From Rhodothermales bacterium (GTDB lineage Bacteria > Bacteroidota > Rhodothermia > Rhodothermales > VXPQ01): a stretch of DNA of 64,000 bases. Below, one piece after another: positions 13,477-48,186 of this stretch. Position numbers and translations under genes: made by a program. How positions within the stretch are numbered: position 1 is the stretch's first letter; every line of letters starts with the position of its first letter. Location: assembly GCA_040904565.1 (NCBI GenBank), contig JBBDTI010000031.1, positions 9,766-73,765 on the forward strand, written 5' to 3'. The notes below the pieces were generated by a model, which made no database searches, was not told the origin of the DNA, and was given only the letters and a program-made list of their open reading frames with translations.

Positions 13477-13505
13477 TTGACAAACGCCCGGCTACGTTCT
13501 ATACT
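13477..13505 (+). promoter_or_regulatory. near-consensus sigma70-type promoter (TTGACA-17-TATACT)
   Basis: TTGACA at 13477-13482, a 17-nt spacer, and TATACT at 13500-13505. It lies about 54 nt upstream of the ATG at 13559. Confidence 0.5.
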
Positions 13506-16859: not shown

Positions 16860-17621
16860 CTATCCCGCCGGTGTGTGGCGCGGGCGCGATAATCGTTCGA
16901 GATAGGCTTCGGCTTCCCTGCCGTCGAGATGGTGGAGGTCAACGTCGAACAGGTCGGAAAAGTCGTGGACGAGCCGCTTTTTTACGGTCGAAACGTCGAC
17001 ATCTCGACCCAGTTCTTCGCGCATCGACGTCACGCCGCGGTCCGAGATGCCGCACGGCACAATGTGCGAGAAGTAGGATAGATCCGTGTTAACGTTCAGT
17101 GCGAAGCCGTGCATCGTCACCCACCGGCTGCACCGTATGCCCATCGCGCAGATTTTTCGCTCGTTCCCCGTATCGTCCGGCCCGATCCAGACGCCGGTTC
17201 GATTCTCGCTTCGCCGCCCTTCCAGGCCGAATGCGCCCACGGTCCTGATGATCGACTCTTCCAGCTGGCGCAGGTAGCGGTGGATGTCGGTAAAGAACCG
17301 GTCGAGGTCCAGGATGGGATAGCCGACGATTTGTCCGGGACCGTGGAAGGTGATGTCGCCTCCACGATCGATCTCGACGAACGACGCGCCGCGCTTCCGA
17401 AGCAGCTCGTCGGATGCGAGCAGATGTCCGGCGTCGCCGCTCTTGCCAAGCGTGTAGACGGGGGGGTGCTCCACGAGCAGCAGGACGTGAGGGACGCGGT
17501 GCGGTGGTGTGCCGCGTTTCGCGGAAATGAGAGCGGATTGCACCCGGCGCTGGAGCTCCCAGGTCGGACGGTAGGCCGCGTGGCCCAGATCGCAGACGAC
17601 GACGGTTTCTCTAGCGTTCAT
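16860..17621 (-). CDS. lipB: octanoyltransferase (lipoyl(octanoyl) transferase)
   Basis: The start is taken at ATG 17621 (MNARETVVVCDLG...). Signatures: LLLVEHPPVYTLG, RGGDITFHGPGQIVGYPILDL, KICAMGIR...TMHGFALNV. The upstream 125 codons of the track ORF are R/S/T-rich junk. Confidence 0.9.
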   Translation of the reverse strand: MNARETVVVCDLGHAAYRPTWELQRRVQSALISAKRGTPPHRVPHVLLLVEHPPVYTLGKSGDAGHLLASDELLRKRGASFVEIDRGGDITFHGPGQIVGYPILDLDRFFTDIHRYLRQLEESIIRTVGAFGLEGRRSENRTGVWIGPDDTGNERKICAMGIRCSRWVTMHGFALNVNTDLSYFSHIVPCGISDRGVTSMREELGRDVDVSTVKKRLVHDFSDLFDVDLHHLDGREAEAYLERLSRPRHTPAG

Positions 17622-17757
17622 TTCTTGTTTCCAACTCACGCGGTTCGATGTGACGGTTCGCCTGCGCGTCGTACTAACGCGCGGCCAGGCGACGAAGCTC
17701 CGATCCGGTGGGGCGGTTCGCTCGGGCGGGATGTGCAGGGGTGCCGCGCCGACGAGT

Positions 17758-30743: not shown

Positions 30744-30803
30744 GGTGGAGGCGAAGTTAGTCCGCGGGCAGGTAGGAGCAGGCGTGCATCGACGCGGTCG
30801 ATG

Positions 30804-31142
30804 CTAGAGTCCGAGCGAGGAGAGGTCCATTCCCGGAGGAAGCATTCCGCCCGCGGCTCCAGACATCTCCTGCTGAGCCATTTCCTGCGCTTCGTCCAAT
30901 GCTTTGTTTACACCCGCGATGACCAGATCTTCCAGCAGTTCAAGGTCGTCGGGATCGATCGCGTCCGGCTCGATCTTGATGCTCGTAACGCGCTGCGCGC
31001 CATTGGCGGTCACCTTGACCATGCCGCCGCCGGCCTCTGCCGTTACCGACTTCGAGGCCAGGTTCTCCTGGACCTCGTTCATCTTCTTCTGCATCTCCAT
31101 GATCTTGCCGAACATATCGGCCATATTTCCACCGTTGGACAT
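30804..31142 (-). CDS. ybaB: nucleoid-associated protein YbaB/EbfC
   Basis: MADMFGKIMEMQKKMNEVQENL...AGGGMVKVTANG...IKIEPDAIDPDDLELLEDLVIAGVNKAL is the classic YbaB pattern, and the gene has the classic position between dnaX and recR. Confidence 0.9.
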   Translation of the reverse strand: MSNGGNMADMFGKIMEMQKKMNEVQENLASKSVTAEAGGGMVKVTANGAQRVTSIKIEPDAIDPDDLELLEDLVIAGVNKALDEAQEMAQQEMSGAAGGMLPPGMDLSSLGL

Positions 31143-41207: not shown

Positions 41208-42082
41208 CGAGACGTCTTGTTTCGGTGGCGGAAGAAGCGTATCAGCGGCTCCACGTACCCTTCGTCCGTGTGAATCGGGACGTAGTCCATCCGGATCCGG
41301 CGAAAGAGTTCCTGCGTGTAGGTTCGGCGCCGGCGGGCCTGCCACGCGAAAGCTTCTCGCGTTCGCCTGGAGCCCGTATCGATGACGACCGTCTCATCGG
41401 TTTCTGCGTCTGTCAGCTCTAGCAGGCCCATGGACGGCAGGTTCTCTTCGCGTGGATCGATGAGATGAACGGCAATCGTATCGTGACGGCGGGCGACGAC
41501 GCGCAGCGGTTTGGCGAATCCGTCGTCCATGAAGTCACTCATCAGGAGAACGATCGAATGCCGGCTCAGCACGTGGAGGATGTGATTCAGCGCGACAGAC
41601 AGGTCCGTGCCGCGCGACGCCGGTTCGTGAGCGAAGAGGTCGCGCAGCAGGCGCAGCACGTGACGCCTTCCTTTCTTGGGCGGTACAAAGAGCTCGATCT
41701 GATCGGAGACCAGCAGCAGTCCAACCTTATCGTTGTTCGAGATGGCGCTGAAGCCTACGATCGCGCAAATTTCCGCGGCCACCTCCCGCTTGAAGTGGGT
41801 CTGCGAGCCGAAATCCTCTGACCCCGAGACGTCGACGACGAGCATGACCGTCTGCTCCCGCTCTTCCTCGAACACCTTGACGTACGGGTCTCCCGTTCGC
41901 GCCGACACGTTCCAGTCGATACTTCGGATGTCGTCGCCGAACTGGTAGGGCCTGACCTCGGAGAACTCGATCCCGCGTCCCTTAAAGGCCGAATGGTATT
42001 CTCCGCCGAAGACGTTGTTTACCAGTCCCTTCGTACGGATCTCTATCCGGCGGATTTTCTTGAACAGTTCCTTGGGAATCAT
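41204..42082 (-). CDS. DUF58 domain protein (MoxR-partner, VWA-like)
   Basis: The start is taken at ATG 42082 (MIPKELFKKIRRIEIRTKGLVNNVFGGEYHSAFKGRGIEFSEVRPYQFGDDIRSIDWNVSAR...). This is the canonical DUF58 N-terminal signature. Confidence 0.85.
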   Translation of the reverse strand: MIPKELFKKIRRIEIRTKGLVNNVFGGEYHSAFKGRGIEFSEVRPYQFGDDIRSIDWNVSARTGDPYVKVFEEEREQTVMLVVDVSGSEDFGSQTHFKREVAAEICAIVGFSAISNNDKVGLLLVSDQIELFVPPKKGRRHVLRLLRDLFAHEPASRGTDLSVALNHILHVLSRHSIVLLMSDFMDDGFAKPLRVVARRHDTIAVHLIDPREENLPSMGLLELTDAETDETVVIDTGSRRTREAFAWQARRRRTYTQELFRRIRMDYVPIHTDEGYVEPLIRFFRHRNKTSR

Positions 42083-42095
42083 CGTCGTGAACCGA

Positions 42096-43067
42096 TTACT
42101 GAGACCATTCCGTCGGTTCTCGGTCCCATCGGTGCTCCGCAAGGCGATCGAGGAGGTCCGCGTCGAGGCCGCCCTTATCGCTGGCGCGCATGTTGGCTTC
42201 CACGTGGCGCAGCTTCCGCATGCCGGGGATGACGGTCGAGACCGTATCGTTCGAGAGGATGAACCGGAGCGCCATTTCGGGCAGGTCCATCTCGCCGGGC
42301 ACGAGCGGTTTCAGGGCATCCGCATGCTCGACGCTCGGGATGAGGTTCTCCGGTACGAAATACGTGTTGCGCCAGTCGCCTTCCGGCCAGGTCGAGTCCT
42401 TTGTCAGCTTGCCCGTAAGCGTGCCTTCGTCGAATGGAACGCGCGCGATGACCGCTACGTCGTGGTCCCTGCAGGCGGGGAAGAGTTCGTCTTCCGGAGC
42501 CTGATCGAAAATGTTGTAGATAACCTGCACGGAGTCGACCAGTCCGCTCCGGACGGCCTTGACGCCGTTCCACGGCTCCCAGCGATTGAGGCTGATGCCG
42601 ATGGCGCGGATGAGGCCCTGGCGACGGAGGTCGTCGAGTTTCCCGTACCACCGATCATCATCCACCCAGCTGTCTTCCCAGACGTGCAGCTGCATCAGGT
42701 CGATGTGGTCGAGTCCGGTGTTTTTGAGGCTCTCCTCGACGCACGCCTGGATGTAATCGGGTGGAAATACCTCGTCCAGCGTGAAGCCGCGCCGGCTGGG
42801 CCACTCCCGGTTCTTCGGGGGGACCTTCGAGGCCGTATAGAGGGTTTTACTGGGATGCTGCTGAACAAGCCTGCCAAGCAGTTTTTCACTGTGTCCTTCG
42901 CCGTATGCCAGGGCGGTATCGAAGAAATTGCATCCCAGTTCGATGGCACGATTCAGCGAGCGCAGCGACTGCTCGTCGTCCGAATTCTCCCATCCTCCCA
43001 TACCCCACATGCCGTAACCGACGTCACTGACCTGCCATCCTGTTCGTCCGAATCGGCGATAGTTCAT
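42096..43067 (-). CDS. aldo/keto reductase
   Basis: [24 protein letters not shown]..., [30 protein letters not shown]. This is the AKR family pattern. Confidence 0.9.
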
Positions 43068-43249
43068 TATTTAACGCTTATTGGTTTGCGGTTCGCGCGC
43101 CGCTACGATGCGGCACGTATTATGATGCGGCGACTATTATAATGACAAGCTTCGAGGAAGATGCCGCCGAATGTGGATCTCGATGCCTGCCGGCAAGTTA
43201 CCACACCGTCTCGCCGGGATACCATGCAATCTTCACGAACACCAGTAGA

Positions 43250-43989: not shown

Positions 43990-44634
43990 ATGTTCGACTT
44001 CTCGGAAGCGCCGATCACGCTGATCCTGATCCTGGTCAACGTGCTGGTCAGCGGATACGCGTTGTTCTTCGATGAGTCGCTGATCGATCGGCTGGCGTTC
44101 AAGCCGCGGGAGATCCTTCGGCAGGGGCAGTACCGGCGTTTGTTCACGGCCGGATTCGTACACGTAAGCGGATCGCACCTGCTCTTCAACATGATCACGC
44201 TCTATTTCTTCGGGCGTCCGATGGAGCAGTACGTGCTGGGGCCCGGCAAATTTCTGCTGCTCTACGTTGGATCGGAGCTGGCAGCACACGCCCTCTCGCT
44301 TGTCCTGCATCGGGATACGGCGGGATACGCGGCCGTAGGAGCGTCAGGCGCCATCAGCGGCGTCCTCTTCGGATACTGTCTGTTCGCCCCGCTCCAGCCG
44401 ATCTACCTGTTCTTCGTGCCCATCGGCATTCCCGCGGCGCTCTTTGCCGTGGGGTACGTCTTCCTTTCGATGTACGCCATGCGGCGGGGGCGGGAAGGAG
44501 GACGCTCCATGACGGGCGGCATCGCGCATGAGGCGCACCTCGGCGGGGCGTTCGGTGGCCTGTTGCTCACGGTACTGTTAGAGCCGCGCGCCATCTCCAT
44601 CTTTCTCCAGGAACTGAGTCGCATCGGGATGTAG
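43990..44634 (+). CDS. rhomboid family intramembrane serine protease
   Basis: Six TM segments. Motifs: YRRLFTAGFVHVSGSHLLFNM, the catalytic GASGAISG, and AHLGGAFGG. Confidence 0.85.
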   Translation: MFDFSEAPITLILILVNVLVSGYALFFDESLIDRLAFKPREILRQGQYRRLFTAGFVHVSGSHLLFNMITLYFFGRPMEQYVLGPGKFLLLYVGSELAAHALSLVLHRDTAGYAAVGASGAISGVLFGYCLFAPLQPIYLFFVPIGIPAALFAVGYVFLSMYAMRRGREGGRSMTGGIAHEAHLGGAFGGLLLTVLLEPRAISIFLQELSRIGM

Positions 44635-44890
44635 CTCGATCTAAAACCGTTATTGCACACGGCGGTTGACCCATGTATCCAAGGGGTTACGCGAAAAGCA
44701 CCGTTATTGCCACTTGCGATTAGATCGTGGCGGATCTATATTAAGATCACCTCATGCGCCTGGAGACCCATTCACGTGGGGACCATCAGTCGCTTCAACG
44801 TGGGCTTCAAGAAGCTCGGTCTGGTGGGCAGGCCGGGCTTTTTGGTCTCCGGCCCTCGGATGCCCAGCTTGTCAACACGCCGCCGACGTC

Positions 44891-44928
44891 TTGTGGATAT
44901 CGTGTTAGTCAATTGTGGATTAGTCGTG
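44891..44928 (+). repeat. two direct repeats TTGTGGAT(n2-4)TCGTG just upstream of the strong promoter
   Basis: ttgtggatatcgtg (44891-44904) and ttgtggattagtcgtg (44913-44928), with starts 22 bp apart. The repeats end 12 bp before the -35 hexamer at 44940. The core TGTGGAT resembles a DnaA-box core. Confidence 0.5.
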
Positions 44929-44939
44929 GCGCGATTCTC

Positions 44940-44968
44940 TTGACGTGCGCACCCTTCCACGCTATAAT
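44940..44968 (+). promoter_or_regulatory. consensus sigma70-type promoter (TTGACG-17-TATAAT)
   Basis: TTGACG at 44940-44945, an exact 17-nt spacer, and a perfect TATAAT at 44963-44968. No ORF with coding character follows it. Confidence 0.6.
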
Positions 44969-44974
44969 AAGCCC

Positions 44975-46009
44975 AGTGCCTGACGGCACTGTTCCTTGAC
45001 GCGACTGAAAACTCTGGGCTGCATGAGGATGCCCGTGCACTGATCGTAAGATCAGTCAGGAGATGCGGCAATCGAACGGCAGGCGGTGCCGGTTGGTCTG
45101 AAGGGGTTCGCCCTCGCAGGCTTTCTGGAACGGCTGCCGGTTTGGATGCATGCGTATCCATTCGCTCACAGACGCGCTGCTTCGGCAGTTAAGTGTGAGT
45201 CGGGTGGAATCGCCAAGCCTTCTCGTCGTGGACCGTGGCTTCGGCCGCCGGTCCCCTCGGTTTCGGCCTTCGGGTCGGCCGAACGGAAGCGACGGATGGT
45301 GCGCATCAGTCCCGCGCGATGCTATGAAGCGATCGGCTGAAAAGCCGTCTGCGGAGAGCGGCGTTTGTTGATGCAGTGAGCTGGAGGATGTTCGGTGGAG
45401 GCCGGACGCGTGATGAAACCGTCTGTCGAAGGACGACGGTGGAACGTGTCCCGGTCGGTGAAGCCGGTATTCGCCACGTGCTCGCCGAGAGCGGTTTGTG
45501 ACGAAGCGGCCGTACCTTTGGGTGCGACGTGGATCCAACCGCTCGATGACGCGGCCAACCGCTCGCTGCGGAGAACGACGTTCGACGAACCAGGCGGTGC
45601 CGGATCGACTCCGGAGCACGGACGCTCTATGACGCGACGGCAGCAATGCCGCCGCTGAGAGCCGACGTGTGATGAAGGAGTGGATCGGCCAGATCAGCCG
45701 GGCGTGGAGCGCGAGCGAGAAAACTGAACGTGCGGGCAATCAAAGGTCCGTGGCTGCTAAACCGTCTGCCCATGCGGTTTAGACGTATCGCTGCCGGGAA
45801 ACCGACAGCCGTGCGCACGGCCACCAGTGCCGGTCTTCGTACCGGCAGGAGAGTTGGCCTCCCCACCGATGGTAGGTTGCTGTTTCGGCAGCGAACTGCA
45901 TCGAGGGAGGCCGGTCGCGCTGAGGGATAATTACATGGCGCACTCCGGATGCGCCGCACGATTGCACACGATTCTCTGATGCCGCCTGCTCTCGCAGACG
46001 GCATTTTTT
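44975..46009 (+). ncRNA. candidate large (~1.03 kb) structured non-coding RNA of unrecognised family
   Basis: The unit is bounded by the consensus promoter (44940-44968) and an intrinsic terminator (45979-46009), and only junk ORFs occur in all six frames. It has many short perfect hairpins capped by stable tetraloops. UUCG loops: CUGC-UUCG-GCAG 45177-45188, GUGGC-UUCG-GCCGC 45235-45248, GGCC-UUCG-GGUC 45265-45276, GCUGU-UUCG-GCAGC 45879-45892. GNRA loops: ACUGAUC-GUAA-GAUCAGU 45039-45056, CGGCA-GCAA-UGCCG 45638-45651. There is also an 8-bp enclosing helix, GGCCUCCC 45856-45863 paired with GGGAGGCC 45905-45912. The ends are approximate. Confidence 0.45.
45979..46009 (+). terminator. intrinsic (Rho-independent) terminator
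   Basis: AUGCCGCCUGC-UCUC-GCAGACGGCAU forms 10 bp with one C/A mismatch, followed by a U-tract running through 46009. It lies 80 nt upstream of the next gene start at 46090. Confidence 0.7.
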
Positions 46010-46089
46010 ATGACAGGGCTTCCCGTTGGGCGCGGAATGGACATTCCGTTCGCATGTTTCCCTCCATCAGCCGTTAGCTGGTTTTCGGC

Positions 46090-46740
46090 ATGTCCCTCGC
46101 CGCGCGCGTCCACGTCATCGTCGTCAACTACCAGACTCCGGACCTGCTGGATACGGCCGTGCGGTCGTTCGTCGAGCACTACCCGGACGTTCCCCTGCTG
46201 ATCGTCGACAACGGGTCCCGCGACGCGTCACGAGACGTCATCGAGACACTGCATGCTGACCTTGCGAACGTGTCGTCCCTCCAGTTGGAGGAAAACCGCT
46301 ATCACGGGCCGGCCATGGACCTGGCCCTGCGGCACGTAGATGTCGACTACGTGTTTTTGCTGGACAGCGACACGAAGACCATGAGGGGAGGTTTCCTCGA
46401 GGAGATGCTGGCGCGATCCGAGGAGCCGAACGTATACGGTGTCGGAAAGATCGCGGAGGTAAACGAACGTGGATTTGCCGCGACACGGGGCATACCCGTG
46501 CTCGTGAGCGCCTACATGCTCATCGATCGAGAACGCTATCTCGACCTTCCGCCGTTTATTCACCACGGTCTTCCCGCCCTTCAAAACTTTCGCGCGGCGG
46601 CCGAAGCAGGATACCGACTCGAACCCTTTCCCGTAGACGAGTATATCGAGCATTTCGGACGGGGGACGGCCGAGCGGTACGGATACGGGTTGGGCTGGAA
46701 GGGGCGCCTCGATTACCTGCTCAACAAGCTGGGCTTTTAG
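46090..46740 (+). CDS. glycosyltransferase family 2
   Basis: VHVIVVNYQTPDLLDTAVRSF...LLIVDNGSRD...FLLDSDT is the GT-A/GT2 N-terminal pattern with a DxD-like motif. Confidence 0.8.
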   Translation: MSLAARVHVIVVNYQTPDLLDTAVRSFVEHYPDVPLLIVDNGSRDASRDVIETLHADLANVSSLQLEENRYHGPAMDLALRHVDVDYVFLLDSDTKTMRGGFLEEMLARSEEPNVYGVGKIAEVNERGFAATRGIPVLVSAYMLIDRERYLDLPPFIHHGLPALQNFRAAAEAGYRLEPFPVDEYIEHFGRGTAERYGYGLGWKGRLDYLLNKLGF

Positions 46741-46824
46741 GCTTCGCGCGATGACGGCGCTATCGCATGGCGCTACCACATGGCACTATCGCCTTGCGCC
46801 TCTACCGATCGCCGCAGCGGAACA

Positions 46825-48186
46825 TCACCACGGCAAACTCGAGGTCGGGCGGCCTACCACCCCCTCCATTTCGCGGAATTCCTCGGCATACCGTTTCACC
46901 TCGTCACGTTCGATCACACCCCGTTCGGTCGCGTACGCGTCGATGAGGTCTGCCGGCACGCGTTCGAAGATCTCGGTTCTAACATCTACGCGGTCCGACA
47001 CAAGCCCGACGCTGGAACGATCCGCTCGTTCTTGCTCGGCAGCGACATCTCCGAACCGGCCGTCAAGTTCTCGCTTTACGGCGACGTCCTCGGAGCGGTC
47101 GTCACGTTCTTGCTTCTCGGACGCCTCCCCGGAGCGATCCGATTCATTCGTCGCGAGCAGCTTGTCGAGGGCAACCGCTACATAGACAGGCACGCCCCGA
47201 CCGCGTGCGACGAGTGCGGCCAGGCGTGAGCCTACCTTGTTGACGATCGATCCATCGGGGAGCAGGGTATCGCACCCCAGCAGCACGGCATCGAAGGGCG
47301 GTGCCGAAGCCATGGACGCGTCGGGGATGAGCGTCACGTCGAGCCGTGCCCGATCGAGCCGTCGCGCTACCTCCACACCTTCGCCACCCGGAAGCGAGAC
47401 GGCCACGACGACGCGTGCCCGCGTCGACAGGAGTGCATCCAGCACCGTTCCCGAACGGGAGACCGTAAGCACCGTTGCGCCGCCGATGAACTCGGCTGCC
47501 GCACTCGATGCAGCGTGGTCGGACGAAACGGCTTCCCGAAGCACGGTATGAATACACGCGGCCCGTTCGCCGCCGTCCGGCATCGACGTCAGGCACCGAC
47601 GCATCGCACGGTTGATCCGGTTCCGGACGGCTGCCATGGACGGACGAGCAGCGACCAGTTCCTTCGCGAGCGCTCTAATATGAGTCCGGGAGGAGGCCTC
47701 GGCCGCGCGATCGCGGAGAACTTCGAGCGCCCGCAACGACAGGTAGGCCGAACCGTGTTCACGATCCGTTCGCACGTCAGCTACCGACGGCGCGACGGCC
47801 CGGTACGACCGCCACAGCTCCGGAACGGTCGCCCGCTGCAGTATGTCGGGCGGGGCCGCCCATTCCCCCTCGGTCGACTCTTCATTGAGCGCGGGCTGTC
47901 GCCGGCGCCCGTCGAAGAGGTACGGATGCACCGTCCACGCGATGCCGAGTTCTTTGTCTTCGACGGAGAAGGGGTTGCCGCGTCGGACGAGTTCCACGTC
48001 GGTGAACCCCGTTTCCTCTTCGATCTCGCGACGAGCCGCTTCGTCCGGGTCGCCTTCGGCATGCCCGGCTACGGCTCCCCACCTTCCGGGATAGGACCCC
48101 ACCTCGCTGCTGCGTCGCAGCAGCAGGACCTCGGCCTCGGCTCGAACGAAGCACGTTACGACGTGCCTGACTTCAAGATCGACCAT
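46825..48186 (-). CDS. fusion protein: N-terminal NUDIX hydrolase + C-terminal eIF-2B alpha/beta/delta-family (ribose-1,5-bisphosphate / MTR-1-P isomerase-like) domain
   Basis: The N-terminus has a Nudix box, GAVAGHAEGDPDEAARREIEEETG. The remainder matches the IF-2B family layout (ARPSMAAVRN..., TVLTVSRSGTV, LLGCDTLLPDGSIVNKVGS, VPVYVAV, ...FERVPADLIDAYATERGVI), with an acidic insertion before the last strand block. Confidence 0.8.
   Translation of the reverse strand: MVDLEVRHVVTCFVRAEAEVLLLRRSSEVGSYPGRWGAVAGHAEGDPDEAARREIEEETGFTDVELVRRGNPFSVEDKELGIAWTVHPYLFDGRRRQPALNEESTEGEWAAPPDILQRATVPELWRSYRAVAPSVADVRTDREHGSAYLSLRALEVLRDRAAEASSRTHIRALAKELVAARPSMAAVRNRINRAMRRCLTSMPDGGERAACIHTVLREAVSSDHAASSAAAEFIGGATVLTVSRSGTVLDALLSTRARVVVAVSLPGGEGVEVARRLDRARLDVTLIPDASMASAPPFDAVLLGCDTLLPDGSIVNKVGSRLAALVARGRGVPVYVAVALDKLLATNESDRSGEASEKQERDDRSEDVAVKRELDGRFGDVAAEQERADRSSVGLVSDRVDVRTEIFERVPADLIDAYATERGVIERDEVKRYAEEFREMEGVVGRPTSSLPW

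Follow-up and report, generated by a model that had tools for sequence, protein, structure and literature searches.

The window analysed here is a stretch of 64,000 nt from the genome of a Rhodothermales bacterium (contig JBBDTI010000031.1 of assembly GCA_040904565.1), in which an intergenic gap of 1455 nt (44635-46089) separates a gene with a Pfam Rhomboid domain (43990-44634) from a Glycos_transf_2 (GT2) gene (46090-46740). The gap holds two tandem RNA genes on the strand of GT2: one for a large structured RNA and, upstream of it, one for a small RNA (sRNA) that is nearly the reverse complement of the 5' domain of the large RNA and has a further segment complementary to a GCCCAU loop of the same molecule (Table 1). 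An earlier reading of this DNA, made from its letters alone and hereafter called the original prediction, had found that the ~1.45 kb between the two protein genes lacked a credible open reading frame (ORF), and had proposed a novel large structured non-coding RNA (ncRNA) in it. Both claims stand: the ORFs of the gap, e.g., one of 227 aa at 45056-45739 on the minus strand, have no Pfam match, and nothing in the tests described below spoke against the RNA. What it missed were the sRNA gene and the DnaA-box-like words in the 300 nt upstream of the large RNA. We are close to certain that the large RNA is the product of a genuine structured ncRNA gene, and the RNA pair is new as a family, matching no known RNA family.

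Table 1. Features of the two-RNA locus, in coordinates of the window.
Feature	Position	Strand	Basis or remark
CCGTTATTG box 1, candidate operator	44647-44655	+	Exact match, upstream of the sRNA promoter
CCGTTATTG box 2	44701-44709	+	4 nt before the sRNA -35 element; column aligned over 55 loci
sRNA promoter, TTGCGA-17-TATATT	44714-44742	+	Consensus scan; TTGC and TATCTT columns conserved in the 55-locus alignment
Partner sRNA gene, ~95 nt	44749-44843	+	Alignment A4, model R2
S1 of the sRNA	44750-44765		Pairs with L1 (45012-45028), CUCUGGGCUGCAUGAGG
Variable hairpin of the sRNA	44767-44780		
S2 of the sRNA	44786-44793		Pairs with L2 (45001-45008), GCGACUGA
S3 of the sRNA	44800-44805		Pairs with the GCCCAU loop, L3 (45768-45773)
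Terminator of the sRNA	44811-44843		
DnaA-box-like 9-mers, ATATCCACA (44892-44900) and TAATCCACA (44914-44922)	44892-44922	-	18-48 nt upstream of the large-RNA -35
Large-RNA promoter, TTGACG-17-TATAAT	44940-44968	+	Consensus scan, 11/12; fixed distance from the 5' domain in most homologs
Large RNA, primary transcript	44974-46009	+	Promoter and terminator kept in 67 homologs; start predicted at ~44974-44976
P1 hairpin, CAGUGCC-UGAC-GGCACUG	44974-44991	+	Covaries, e.g., GCGUC/GAUGC in L038, L052, L059 and L087
Pa, 5' strand of the closing helix	44992-45005	+	Pairs with 45914-45927
Docking sites L2 (45001-45008) and L1 (45012-45028)	45001-45028	+	Pb 5' strand (45010-45015) between them, overlapping L1
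Pd, irregular helix	45016-45037 with 45731-45749	+	Seven-sequence RNAalifold and minimum free energy (MFE) fold; GCAUGAGG in the internal loop
Variable expansion domain of tetraloop-capped hairpins	45038-45730	+	211-859 nt among homologs
GCCCAU hairpin (L3)	45757-45782	+	Invariant loop CUGCCCAU (45766-45773); docking site for S3
3' core: Pb 3' strand (45850-45855), Pc (45856-45863/45905-45912) enclosing the UUCG hairpin (45879-45892), Pa 3' strand (45914-45927)	45850-45927	+	
Intrinsic terminator	45978-46009	+	Hairpin 45980-46003 and T-run 46004-46009; comparable one in most homologs

A number of arguments support the large RNA as a gene of its own. First, it is conserved, as the original prediction required, across many families of the order and with its signals in place. 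Of 40 related genomes searched with BLASTN, 31 contain the region, one copy in each, as two strongly conserved blocks (44962-45040 and 45732-45927) with a middle of very different length between them. The covariance model R1, built on the 5' domain, gives the window 81.5 bits and finds a single copy in 87 of the 151 Rhodothermales genomes sampled, the RNA being conserved across most families of the order; it has no match in about 140 sampled genomes of the phylum outside it. When a degenerate pattern of the 5' block was scanned over one genome per species, for about 185,000 species, it matched 72 species, nearly all labelled Rhodothermales, Rhodothermia, Rhodothermaceae or Bacteroidetes/Bacteroidota metagenome-assembled genomes. 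One match is Roseithermus sacchariphilus, and a small number have labels that say little ('Flavobacteriia' once, 'uncultured bacterium' in a few cases). Among the genomes searched, the two-RNA system is restricted to the Rhodothermales.

Second, 67 non-redundant homologs from the order, 547-1275 nt long, retain promoter and terminator. The minimal versions of the large RNA, such as the L019 and L055 types, have 550 nt. The promoters of the homologs read TTGAC-17-TATAAT/TATACT and stand at a set distance before the conserved 5' block. That of the window had been put forward as the best promoter match in the whole stretch; it is present, and matches 11 of the 12 consensus positions of a sigma-70-type promoter, but it ties with another site (TTGACA-17-TATACT, 13477-13505, plus strand), which precedes a gene opening with a signal-peptide-like sequence. 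Likewise, the predicted 10-bp terminator hairpin with its U-tract is real, but one of its pairs is a C.A mismatch, leaving 9 of 10, and for this reason the consensus scan passed it over. The family alignment turns it into a 13-bp helix with 5 compensatory pairs. Up to this terminator the large RNA measures 1036 nt, or about 955 nt if it is processed at the closing helix. Third, the RNA is non-coding, as had been proposed: there is no conserved ORF among the homologs, their longest ORFs differ in place and frame between species, and their lengths change by indels of any size. The sole conserved AUG opens frames of 2-193 aa which have only their first two residues (Met-Arg) in common.

The large RNA belongs to no family that we could name. 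At gathering thresholds, Rfam 15, whose families include OLE, GOLLD, ROOL, raiA, HEARO, RNase P RNA, tmRNA, SRP RNA, 6S RNA and group I and II introns, has no match in the whole window or in the loci of seven relatives; with permissive filters over 44600-46120, the best match is M23, with 21.5 bits against a gathering threshold of 41.2 (E = 0.32). This is in line with the original prediction, which had called for such a scan and had seen no signature of RNase P RNA, tmRNA, SRP RNA, 6S RNA, rRNA or group II intron domain V, and no evidence for membership in the OLE, GOLLD or ROOL families. A housekeeping RNA in disguise was considered and rejected, as the RNase P RNA and the tmRNA of this genome lie on other contigs (C13, 242 bits, and C65, 172 bits, respectively). 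So was a replacement of 6S RNA. The 6S model (RF00013) has no match at the locus, and 6S RNA is a rod of ~180-200 nt with a central bubble, whereas the large RNA is branched and has 550-1275 nt. None of the 151 Rhodothermales genomes has an RF00013 hit above the cut-off of the model, and nine have weak ones (25-41 bits); these occur both in family f6, where the large RNA is present, and in family f61, where it is absent, and so do not complement its distribution. The 6S RNA of the order is therefore either very divergent or undescribed. No prior description of an RNA such as this one was found in the full-text literature covered, which leaves out subscription journals. The family that we propose is recognised by a 5' domain, GUUCCUUGACGCGACUGAG...GGCUGCAUGAGG after P1, closed by a 3' strand ..UCGCG..AGGGA, and by a tandem upstream sRNA with S1, S2 and S3 complementary to L1, L2 and L3; the window has the sRNA and has the two domains at 44974-45028 and 45914-45927.

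The fold of the large RNA is supported by energy and by covariation. Region 44974-45928 folds on the plus strand to -479.7 kcal/mol (z = -7.85 against 20 dinucleotide shuffles), 83 kcal/mol better than the minus strand (-396.5 kcal/mol, z = -4.6). The 5' domain pairs with the 3' domain through Pa, Pb and Pc, and closes the molecule around a junction with the GCCCAU hairpin. In Pa, the near-invariant GUUCCUUGACGCGAC (44991-45005) meets GUCGCGCUGAGGGA (45914-45927), and a duplex of 12-15 bp forms in all 46 homologs compared (mean -18.9 kcal/mol, vs -7.5 with shuffled tails), with covariation in the genome G163 (GUUCUGUAGC:GCUAUAGAAU, read by eye) and in the L038 clade (A-U). Three nucleotides beyond the Pa region, AACUCU (45010-45015) pairs with AGAGUU (45850-45855) to make Pb, whose cognate duplexes average -9.75 against -7.67 for non-cognate ones; none of 1000 permutations was as good, and compensatory examples include UCUUU:AAAGA, AUCUCU:AGAGAU and GAAUCUC:GAGGUUC. 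Pc and its inner hairpins (alignment A2) comprise 16 pairs, 14 of them with double changes, and 90.9% of the cells are paired, vs 37-53% in slid controls and with no shuffle of 500 as good. The GCCCAU hairpin, upstream of the 3' strand of Pb, has 9 pairs (alignment A3), 8 with double changes, and 85.5% of cells paired, better than all of 500 shuffles and all slid controls; its stem covaries freely and its loop, U-GCCCAU, is invariant. Covariation in Pd is weak (one double change). P1, Pa, Pb, Pc and the GCCCAU hairpin are all present in the RNAalifold structure of seven sequences of the window's family and, independently, in the MFE fold of the single sequence. Compensatory changes are well above shuffled and slid controls, the kind of support that the original prediction had asked for.

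Between these conserved parts lies the variable domain, with numerous helices that have compensatory pairs at the level of the family. All the capped hairpins described by the original prediction, four with UUCG and two with GNRA loops, exist where it placed them, as does its nested helix GGCCUCCC/GGGAGGCC, and its argument that such a density of capped hairpins marks a folded RNA agrees with the z-score of the fold and with word counts beyond chance. Over 60 homologs, the variable regions contain 106 copies of CUUCGG where 6.4 would be expected, 71 of CGCAAG (11.7 expected) and 63 of CGAAAG (9.8 expected), so that these UUCG/GNRA hairpin words are 6- to 16-fold over-represented. Between the hairpins (45300-45730 in the window, and the homologous regions) other words recur, GAUGAAGC, GGUGAAG and (U/C)GUGGAG (GATGAA 43 times vs 7 expected, TGTGGA 40 vs 6.6). 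The GAUGAAGC and GUGGAG words correspond to no motif that we could assign (k-turn or protein site), and the number of modules with such recurring words seems to track the length of the RNA.

The large RNA is also seen in RNA libraries. Metatranscriptome contigs from four studies (ice, two of soil, salt lake) cover 44935-45968 at identities of at least 80%, and some, from close relatives, reach 93-95% inside the variable region; none aligned on 44841-44934 or 45969-46100, which is only weak evidence. Of the transcript of ~1 kb that had been predicted for 44975-46009, the contigs cover the body and not the GT2 side. In three of the studies, contigs break off at 45924-45928, without a loose end, exactly at the last base pair of the closing helix. 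This is a weak hint that the mature 3' end may be at ~45924-45928 rather than at the terminator, through 3' trimming. One ice metatranscriptome (X1) has 516 aligned contigs and summed contig depths of 3.4e5 (44982-45028) and 1.2e6 (45734-45827), figures too high for a plain expression level and unusable as abundance, since many contigs, possibly from several organisms, stack on the conserved blocks. A very abundant RNA, present in many variants or in contigs with errors, may account for these depths.

The sRNA gene co-occurs with that of the large RNA. Its consensus order is (A)CCUCAUGC(C)GCCUGGA, the variable hairpin, CUCAGUCGCG, a short spacer, AUGGGCA and the terminator. The only ORF of the region has its frame broken by a 1-nt indel between relatives, and the sRNA has no match in Rfam. 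The model R2 gives it 61.5 bits in the window and, at E <= 0.001, detects it in 92 of the 151 genomes. Among these matches, the weakest, including all those in family f3, look like chance matches to the terminator only, and a homolog of the sRNA in that family was accordingly rejected. The distributions of the two RNAs over families are nearly identical, and, wherever both genes are found, the sRNA lies 110-300 nt upstream of the large RNA on the same strand, in an invariant tandem order. The tandem is kept in four genomes where the rhomboid gene lies elsewhere (G027, G197, G163 and G202), and in several genomes the RNA pair is far from that gene (hundreds of kilobases). The genes of the sRNA and of the large RNA are inherited as a unit. 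A specific partnership with the rhomboid protease was considered and is unsupported, its ortholog being present in 147 of 151 genomes, including families that lack the RNAs.

L1:S1 and L2:S2 complementarity occurs in all loci examined. The gain in free energy upon cofolding is -26.3 kcal/mol in the window and averages -23.9 kcal/mol over 55 species, vs -8.0 with shuffled sRNAs. The intermolecular pairings covary: the changes that do occur at paired positions are compensated, in separate lineages and also at loci that the covariance model found and the pattern did not (Table 2); L012 is also among the lineages with such changes. S3 and the L3 hairpin, moreover, are mostly either both present or both missing. 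We think it likely, on this evidence, that the pairing of the two RNAs is functional. Two intramolecular pairings were tried and dropped. One, between the GCCCAU loop and 5' UGGGC/UAGGC of the large RNA, showed no covariation by eye and gave way to S3:L3; the other, AGCCCAG/CUGGGCU at the 5' end in the window, is conserved only in close relatives.

Table 2. Compensatory changes between the large RNA and the sRNA.
Lineage	Large RNA	sRNA	Change
L011	CGCGAUGGAG	CUCCGUCGCG	U-A to G-C
L004, L005, L007, L063	..CUGAA	UUCAG..	G-C to A-U
L015	GGACUGCAUGAGAG	CUCUCAUGCAGUCU	Perfect 14 bp, three compensations
L128	CAGGCAGCAUGAGG	CCUCAUGCUGCCUG	Perfect 14-bp L1:S1 duplex
L128	CGCGACUGC	GCAGUCGCG	A-U to C-G
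L129, L130	GCUACAUGAG	CUCAUGUGGC	G-C to A-U
L131	GCGACUGUU	AACAGUUGU	Two compensatory changes
G163	AGCAUGACUGA	UCAGUCAUGCU	CGCG to CAUG, in both RNAs

Each of the two genes has conserved words of its own upstream. At least one CCGTTATTG box precedes the sRNA in 55 of 65 homologous loci, and 41 have two. The large RNA is preceded, within 380 nt, by at least one DnaA-box-like word (within one mismatch of TTATCCACA) in ~56 of 63 loci, mostly at the position found in the window, when ~0.08 would be expected per locus; G163 has three perfect DnaA boxes there, and such words are found in six of nine divergent loci; they travel with the gene. As leads only, the upstream words of the two genes suggest separate control of the two RNAs, by factors linked with replication and DNA topology. 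Elsewhere in the genome, clusters of two or three CCGTTATTG(C) words stand at other intergenic sites (C75, ~194193-194330, L127; C42, ~30757-30853, L125; C74, ~17617-17697, L126), one of which immediately precedes a gene of the GyrA family (Pfam DNA_topoisoIV, E = 9.6e-150); they may mark the regulon of a putative DNA-binding protein. The genome has two full-length genes of the DnaA family (C67:13361-13846 and C94:25833-26315, in open frames of 568 and 519 aa); clusters of at least three DnaA boxes in 300 bp are confined to C94, in the neighbourhood of one of the two genes. A replication origin at the RNA locus was rejected, as the 150-kb contig has a positive GC skew throughout and carries neither dnaA nor any of the box clusters, which are on other contigs.

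The explanation that we find best overall, and lean towards, is a two-RNA system of the Rhodothermales in which docking of the sRNA remodels the junction that closes the large RNA between its 5' and 3' ends; this remodelling is our best guess at what the pair does. Most of L1 is in an internal loop, and L3 is in the loop of a hairpin; because of these positions both would be open as first contacts. The sRNA would dock on the exposed L1 internal loop and L3 hairpin loop, as on a toehold, and would then invade Pb and the inner part of Pa, displacing their 3' strands, because S1 and S2 compete for the same nucleotides. As these nucleotides are shared with Pb and the inner half of Pa, the bound and the fully closed states are alternatives, both supported by covariation. 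The large RNA, at first closed and with its ends protected, would in this way switch to an open form, and the switch would control its activity, its stability or its binding of partners. Since each promoter has its own conserved upstream words, the ratio of sRNA to large RNA would track the status of replication or DNA topology. We propose this specific mechanism tentatively, as one that is possible and that we would not yet call probable; sequestration of the sRNA by the large RNA could equally fit the same anatomy. A wider version, in which the pair would be a chromosomal bimolecular RNA machine, with an sRNA that opens or completes the junction of an abundant ornate RNA of 0.55-1.3 kb and with promoters under DnaA and under a regulator in common with gyrA, and would read out or feed back on replication initiation or topology, is speculative and in our opinion unlikely. 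We know of no precedent for such riboregulation among large bacterial ncRNAs.

Several points weigh against this explanation. Everything said here of the two-RNA system comes from sequences and from RNA-library contigs, and the latter cannot show strand, exact ends or true abundance; for the sRNA region, depth is only 2-5, in a single metatranscriptome run. The search pattern by which the 72 species were matched forced invariance at GTTCCTTGA, GCGA, GA and GCATGAG, and the apparent invariance of L1 and L2 is therefore partly due to ascertainment; most intermolecular pairs never vary, partly for this reason. A C-to-A change in the L019 and L038 clades is compensated by the intramolecular partner alone and not by the sRNA. 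The shuffled and slid controls ignore the kinship of the sequences. Pairing with the sRNA cannot fully coexist with Pa and Pb, and a switch between the two states is an inference. Finally, the DnaA-box-like words are short, and the genome has 348 similar ones.

Among the alternatives, the one that survives best regards the two RNAs as an obligate heterodimer, or split RNA, in which the sRNA is a permanent structural subunit completing the core of the large RNA, the active particle always contains both RNAs, and the overlap with Pa and Pb is solved by partial pairing and not by switching. This would account for the complementarity of nearly the whole non-terminator part of the sRNA at three separate sites, far beyond a regulatory seed, for the strict co-occurrence and adjacency of the genes, and for the joint loss of S3 and L3 (both present in 42 loci, both absent in 10, and discordant in 11, by a crude count); besides, the sRNA and the 3' strand of the large RNA each make a similar three-way junction with the 5' domain. 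Adjacent genes and a conserved pairing into one structure are also found in bipartite RNAs such as two-piece tmRNA, crRNA:tracrRNA, and tscA in trans-spliced group II introns, but there is no homology with them, and here the RNAs have separate promoters and terminators and are not cut from one precursor. Associated protein genes (Cas, SmpB, intron-encoded protein) were not found at the locus. Two arguments make a permanent complex doubtful, to the point that we give it a minor share of credence: Pa and Pb use the S2 and S1 nucleotides and covary, so that one static complex cannot satisfy all the supported pairs, and the different upstream words of the two genes suggest independent control.

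A second alternative is that the sRNA regulates mRNAs in trans and that the large RNA is a sponge or decoy which titrates or stores it, or that the sRNA triggers decay of the large RNA. The apparent high abundance of the large RNA in RNA libraries, its single extended surface for binding the sRNA, and the fact that S1 covers the AUG-containing word GCAUGAGG, of a kind found at start codons, are all compatible with it. As in the known sponges (SroC, 3'ETS-leuZ, chb IGR), the conserved feature is a site for one specific sRNA. Those are, however, short RNAs or by-products with a single seed-length site each, whereas here three sites together cover the sRNA and the large RNA has a large conserved core fold of its own. 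A sponge needs neither a covarying three-way-junction core, nor a Pc domain, nor 0.5-1.2 kb of ornate hairpins, and complementarity extends over three segments. Moreover, a scan of this genome, in which short seeds were outside the scope, found no other near-perfect site for S1, S2 or S3. We hold this alternative to be rather improbable.

The complementarity could also act in cis or at the level of DNA, as an inverted repeat within a read-through transcript (a long-range helix or attenuator) or as a palindrome bound by a protein, since both elements are on the same strand, ~240 nt apart, and the contigs leave room for read-through of the sRNA terminator. This is very improbable: the sRNA terminator and the complete large-RNA promoter with its upstream boxes are conserved in nearly all loci; the compensatory changes keep Watson-Crick or G.U pairs, the latter making sense only at the level of RNA; and RNA libraries leave the stretch between the two genes uncovered, a weak point given that relatives may not align there. 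Lastly, that there is no dedicated RNA gene, and that this unusually long gap upstream of GT2 on the same strand is a long 5' leader of that gene, a pseudogene in decay, an overlooked protein gene, or a known RNA in divergent form (RNase P, tmRNA, 6S, OLE, GOLLD, ROOL), deserves hardly any credence, as the terminator precedes GT2, which is the downstream gene in only a minority of the homologous loci, the homologs have no conserved ORF and vary freely in length, RNase P RNA and tmRNA are elsewhere, and no Rfam family reaches E = 0.1 here.

The two-RNA system that we favour, with its docking sRNA, resembles several known systems in part. Large structured bacterial RNAs of unexplained function are few: OLE, GOLLD, ROOL, raiA and HEARO. 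The large RNA shares with OLE, GOLLD and ROOL the size class of 0.5-1.3 kb, many covarying helices capped by tetraloops, the lack of coding capacity, a restricted taxonomic range, a high apparent abundance and a function unknown at discovery. Unlike them, it is found in Rhodothermales and not in Bacillota or phages, it is not linked to oapA-like or phage genes, and its length varies more than two-fold through one expandable domain; there is no homology of sequence or structure (no Rfam match). To our knowledge, a dedicated, separately transcribed complementary sRNA has not been described for any of the three. The RNA I/RNA II pair of ColE1 offers a likeness of another kind, i.e., complementarity between a ~100-nt RNA and the 5' region of a longer, structured one (at least 550 nt), binding that would begin at loops and remodel the fold of the longer RNA, and a DnaA box nearby. 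Control of the ColE1 type was nevertheless rejected: RNA I is antisense to the same DNA, whereas the sRNA gene precedes that of the large RNA on the same strand, in tandem and with no overlap, and the locus is chromosomal, single-copy, neither at a GC-skew switch nor next to dnaA, and bears no sign of primer formation. With hok/sok, the large RNA has in common a long-range 5'-3' closing helix, a possible 3' trimming, and a small antisense RNA over a conserved AUG region, but it is far larger, single-copy, vertically inherited and devoid of a conserved toxin ORF. A type I toxin-antitoxin system was rejected since the frames opened by the AUG are unrelated between species.

Each of the earlier classes (OLE, GOLLD, ROOL, raiA, HEARO) led to new biology or to new RNA architecture. 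Here, the mapped docking sites and the compensatory changes of the partner sRNA make tests of structure and function straightforward, and the presence of the RNA pair in the cultured Roseithermus sacchariphilus, at ~193.4-193.7 kb of CP030158 (locus L031/L009), makes it tractable. The DnaA-box-like words and the box shared with gyrA suggest replication or DNA topology as the physiological axis on which the system may act. As the RNA has been seen in metatranscriptomes of soil, ice and a salt lake, it is probably widespread in nature, and it is likely to make up a sizeable unannotated fraction of the reads in habitats rich in Rhodothermales.

The surroundings of the locus have features of their own. 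Two ORFs beside it, of 375 aa (42015-43142, plus strand) and 144 aa (46751-47185, plus strand), have no Pfam match; relatives of the first, at ~40% identity, occur upstream of a GATase-rhomboid pair at some other loci. On the minus strand, an ORF of 453 aa (46825-48186) combines an N-terminal NUDIX domain with a domain of the IF-2B family, similar to methylthioribose-1-phosphate isomerase, and this fusion is uncommon.

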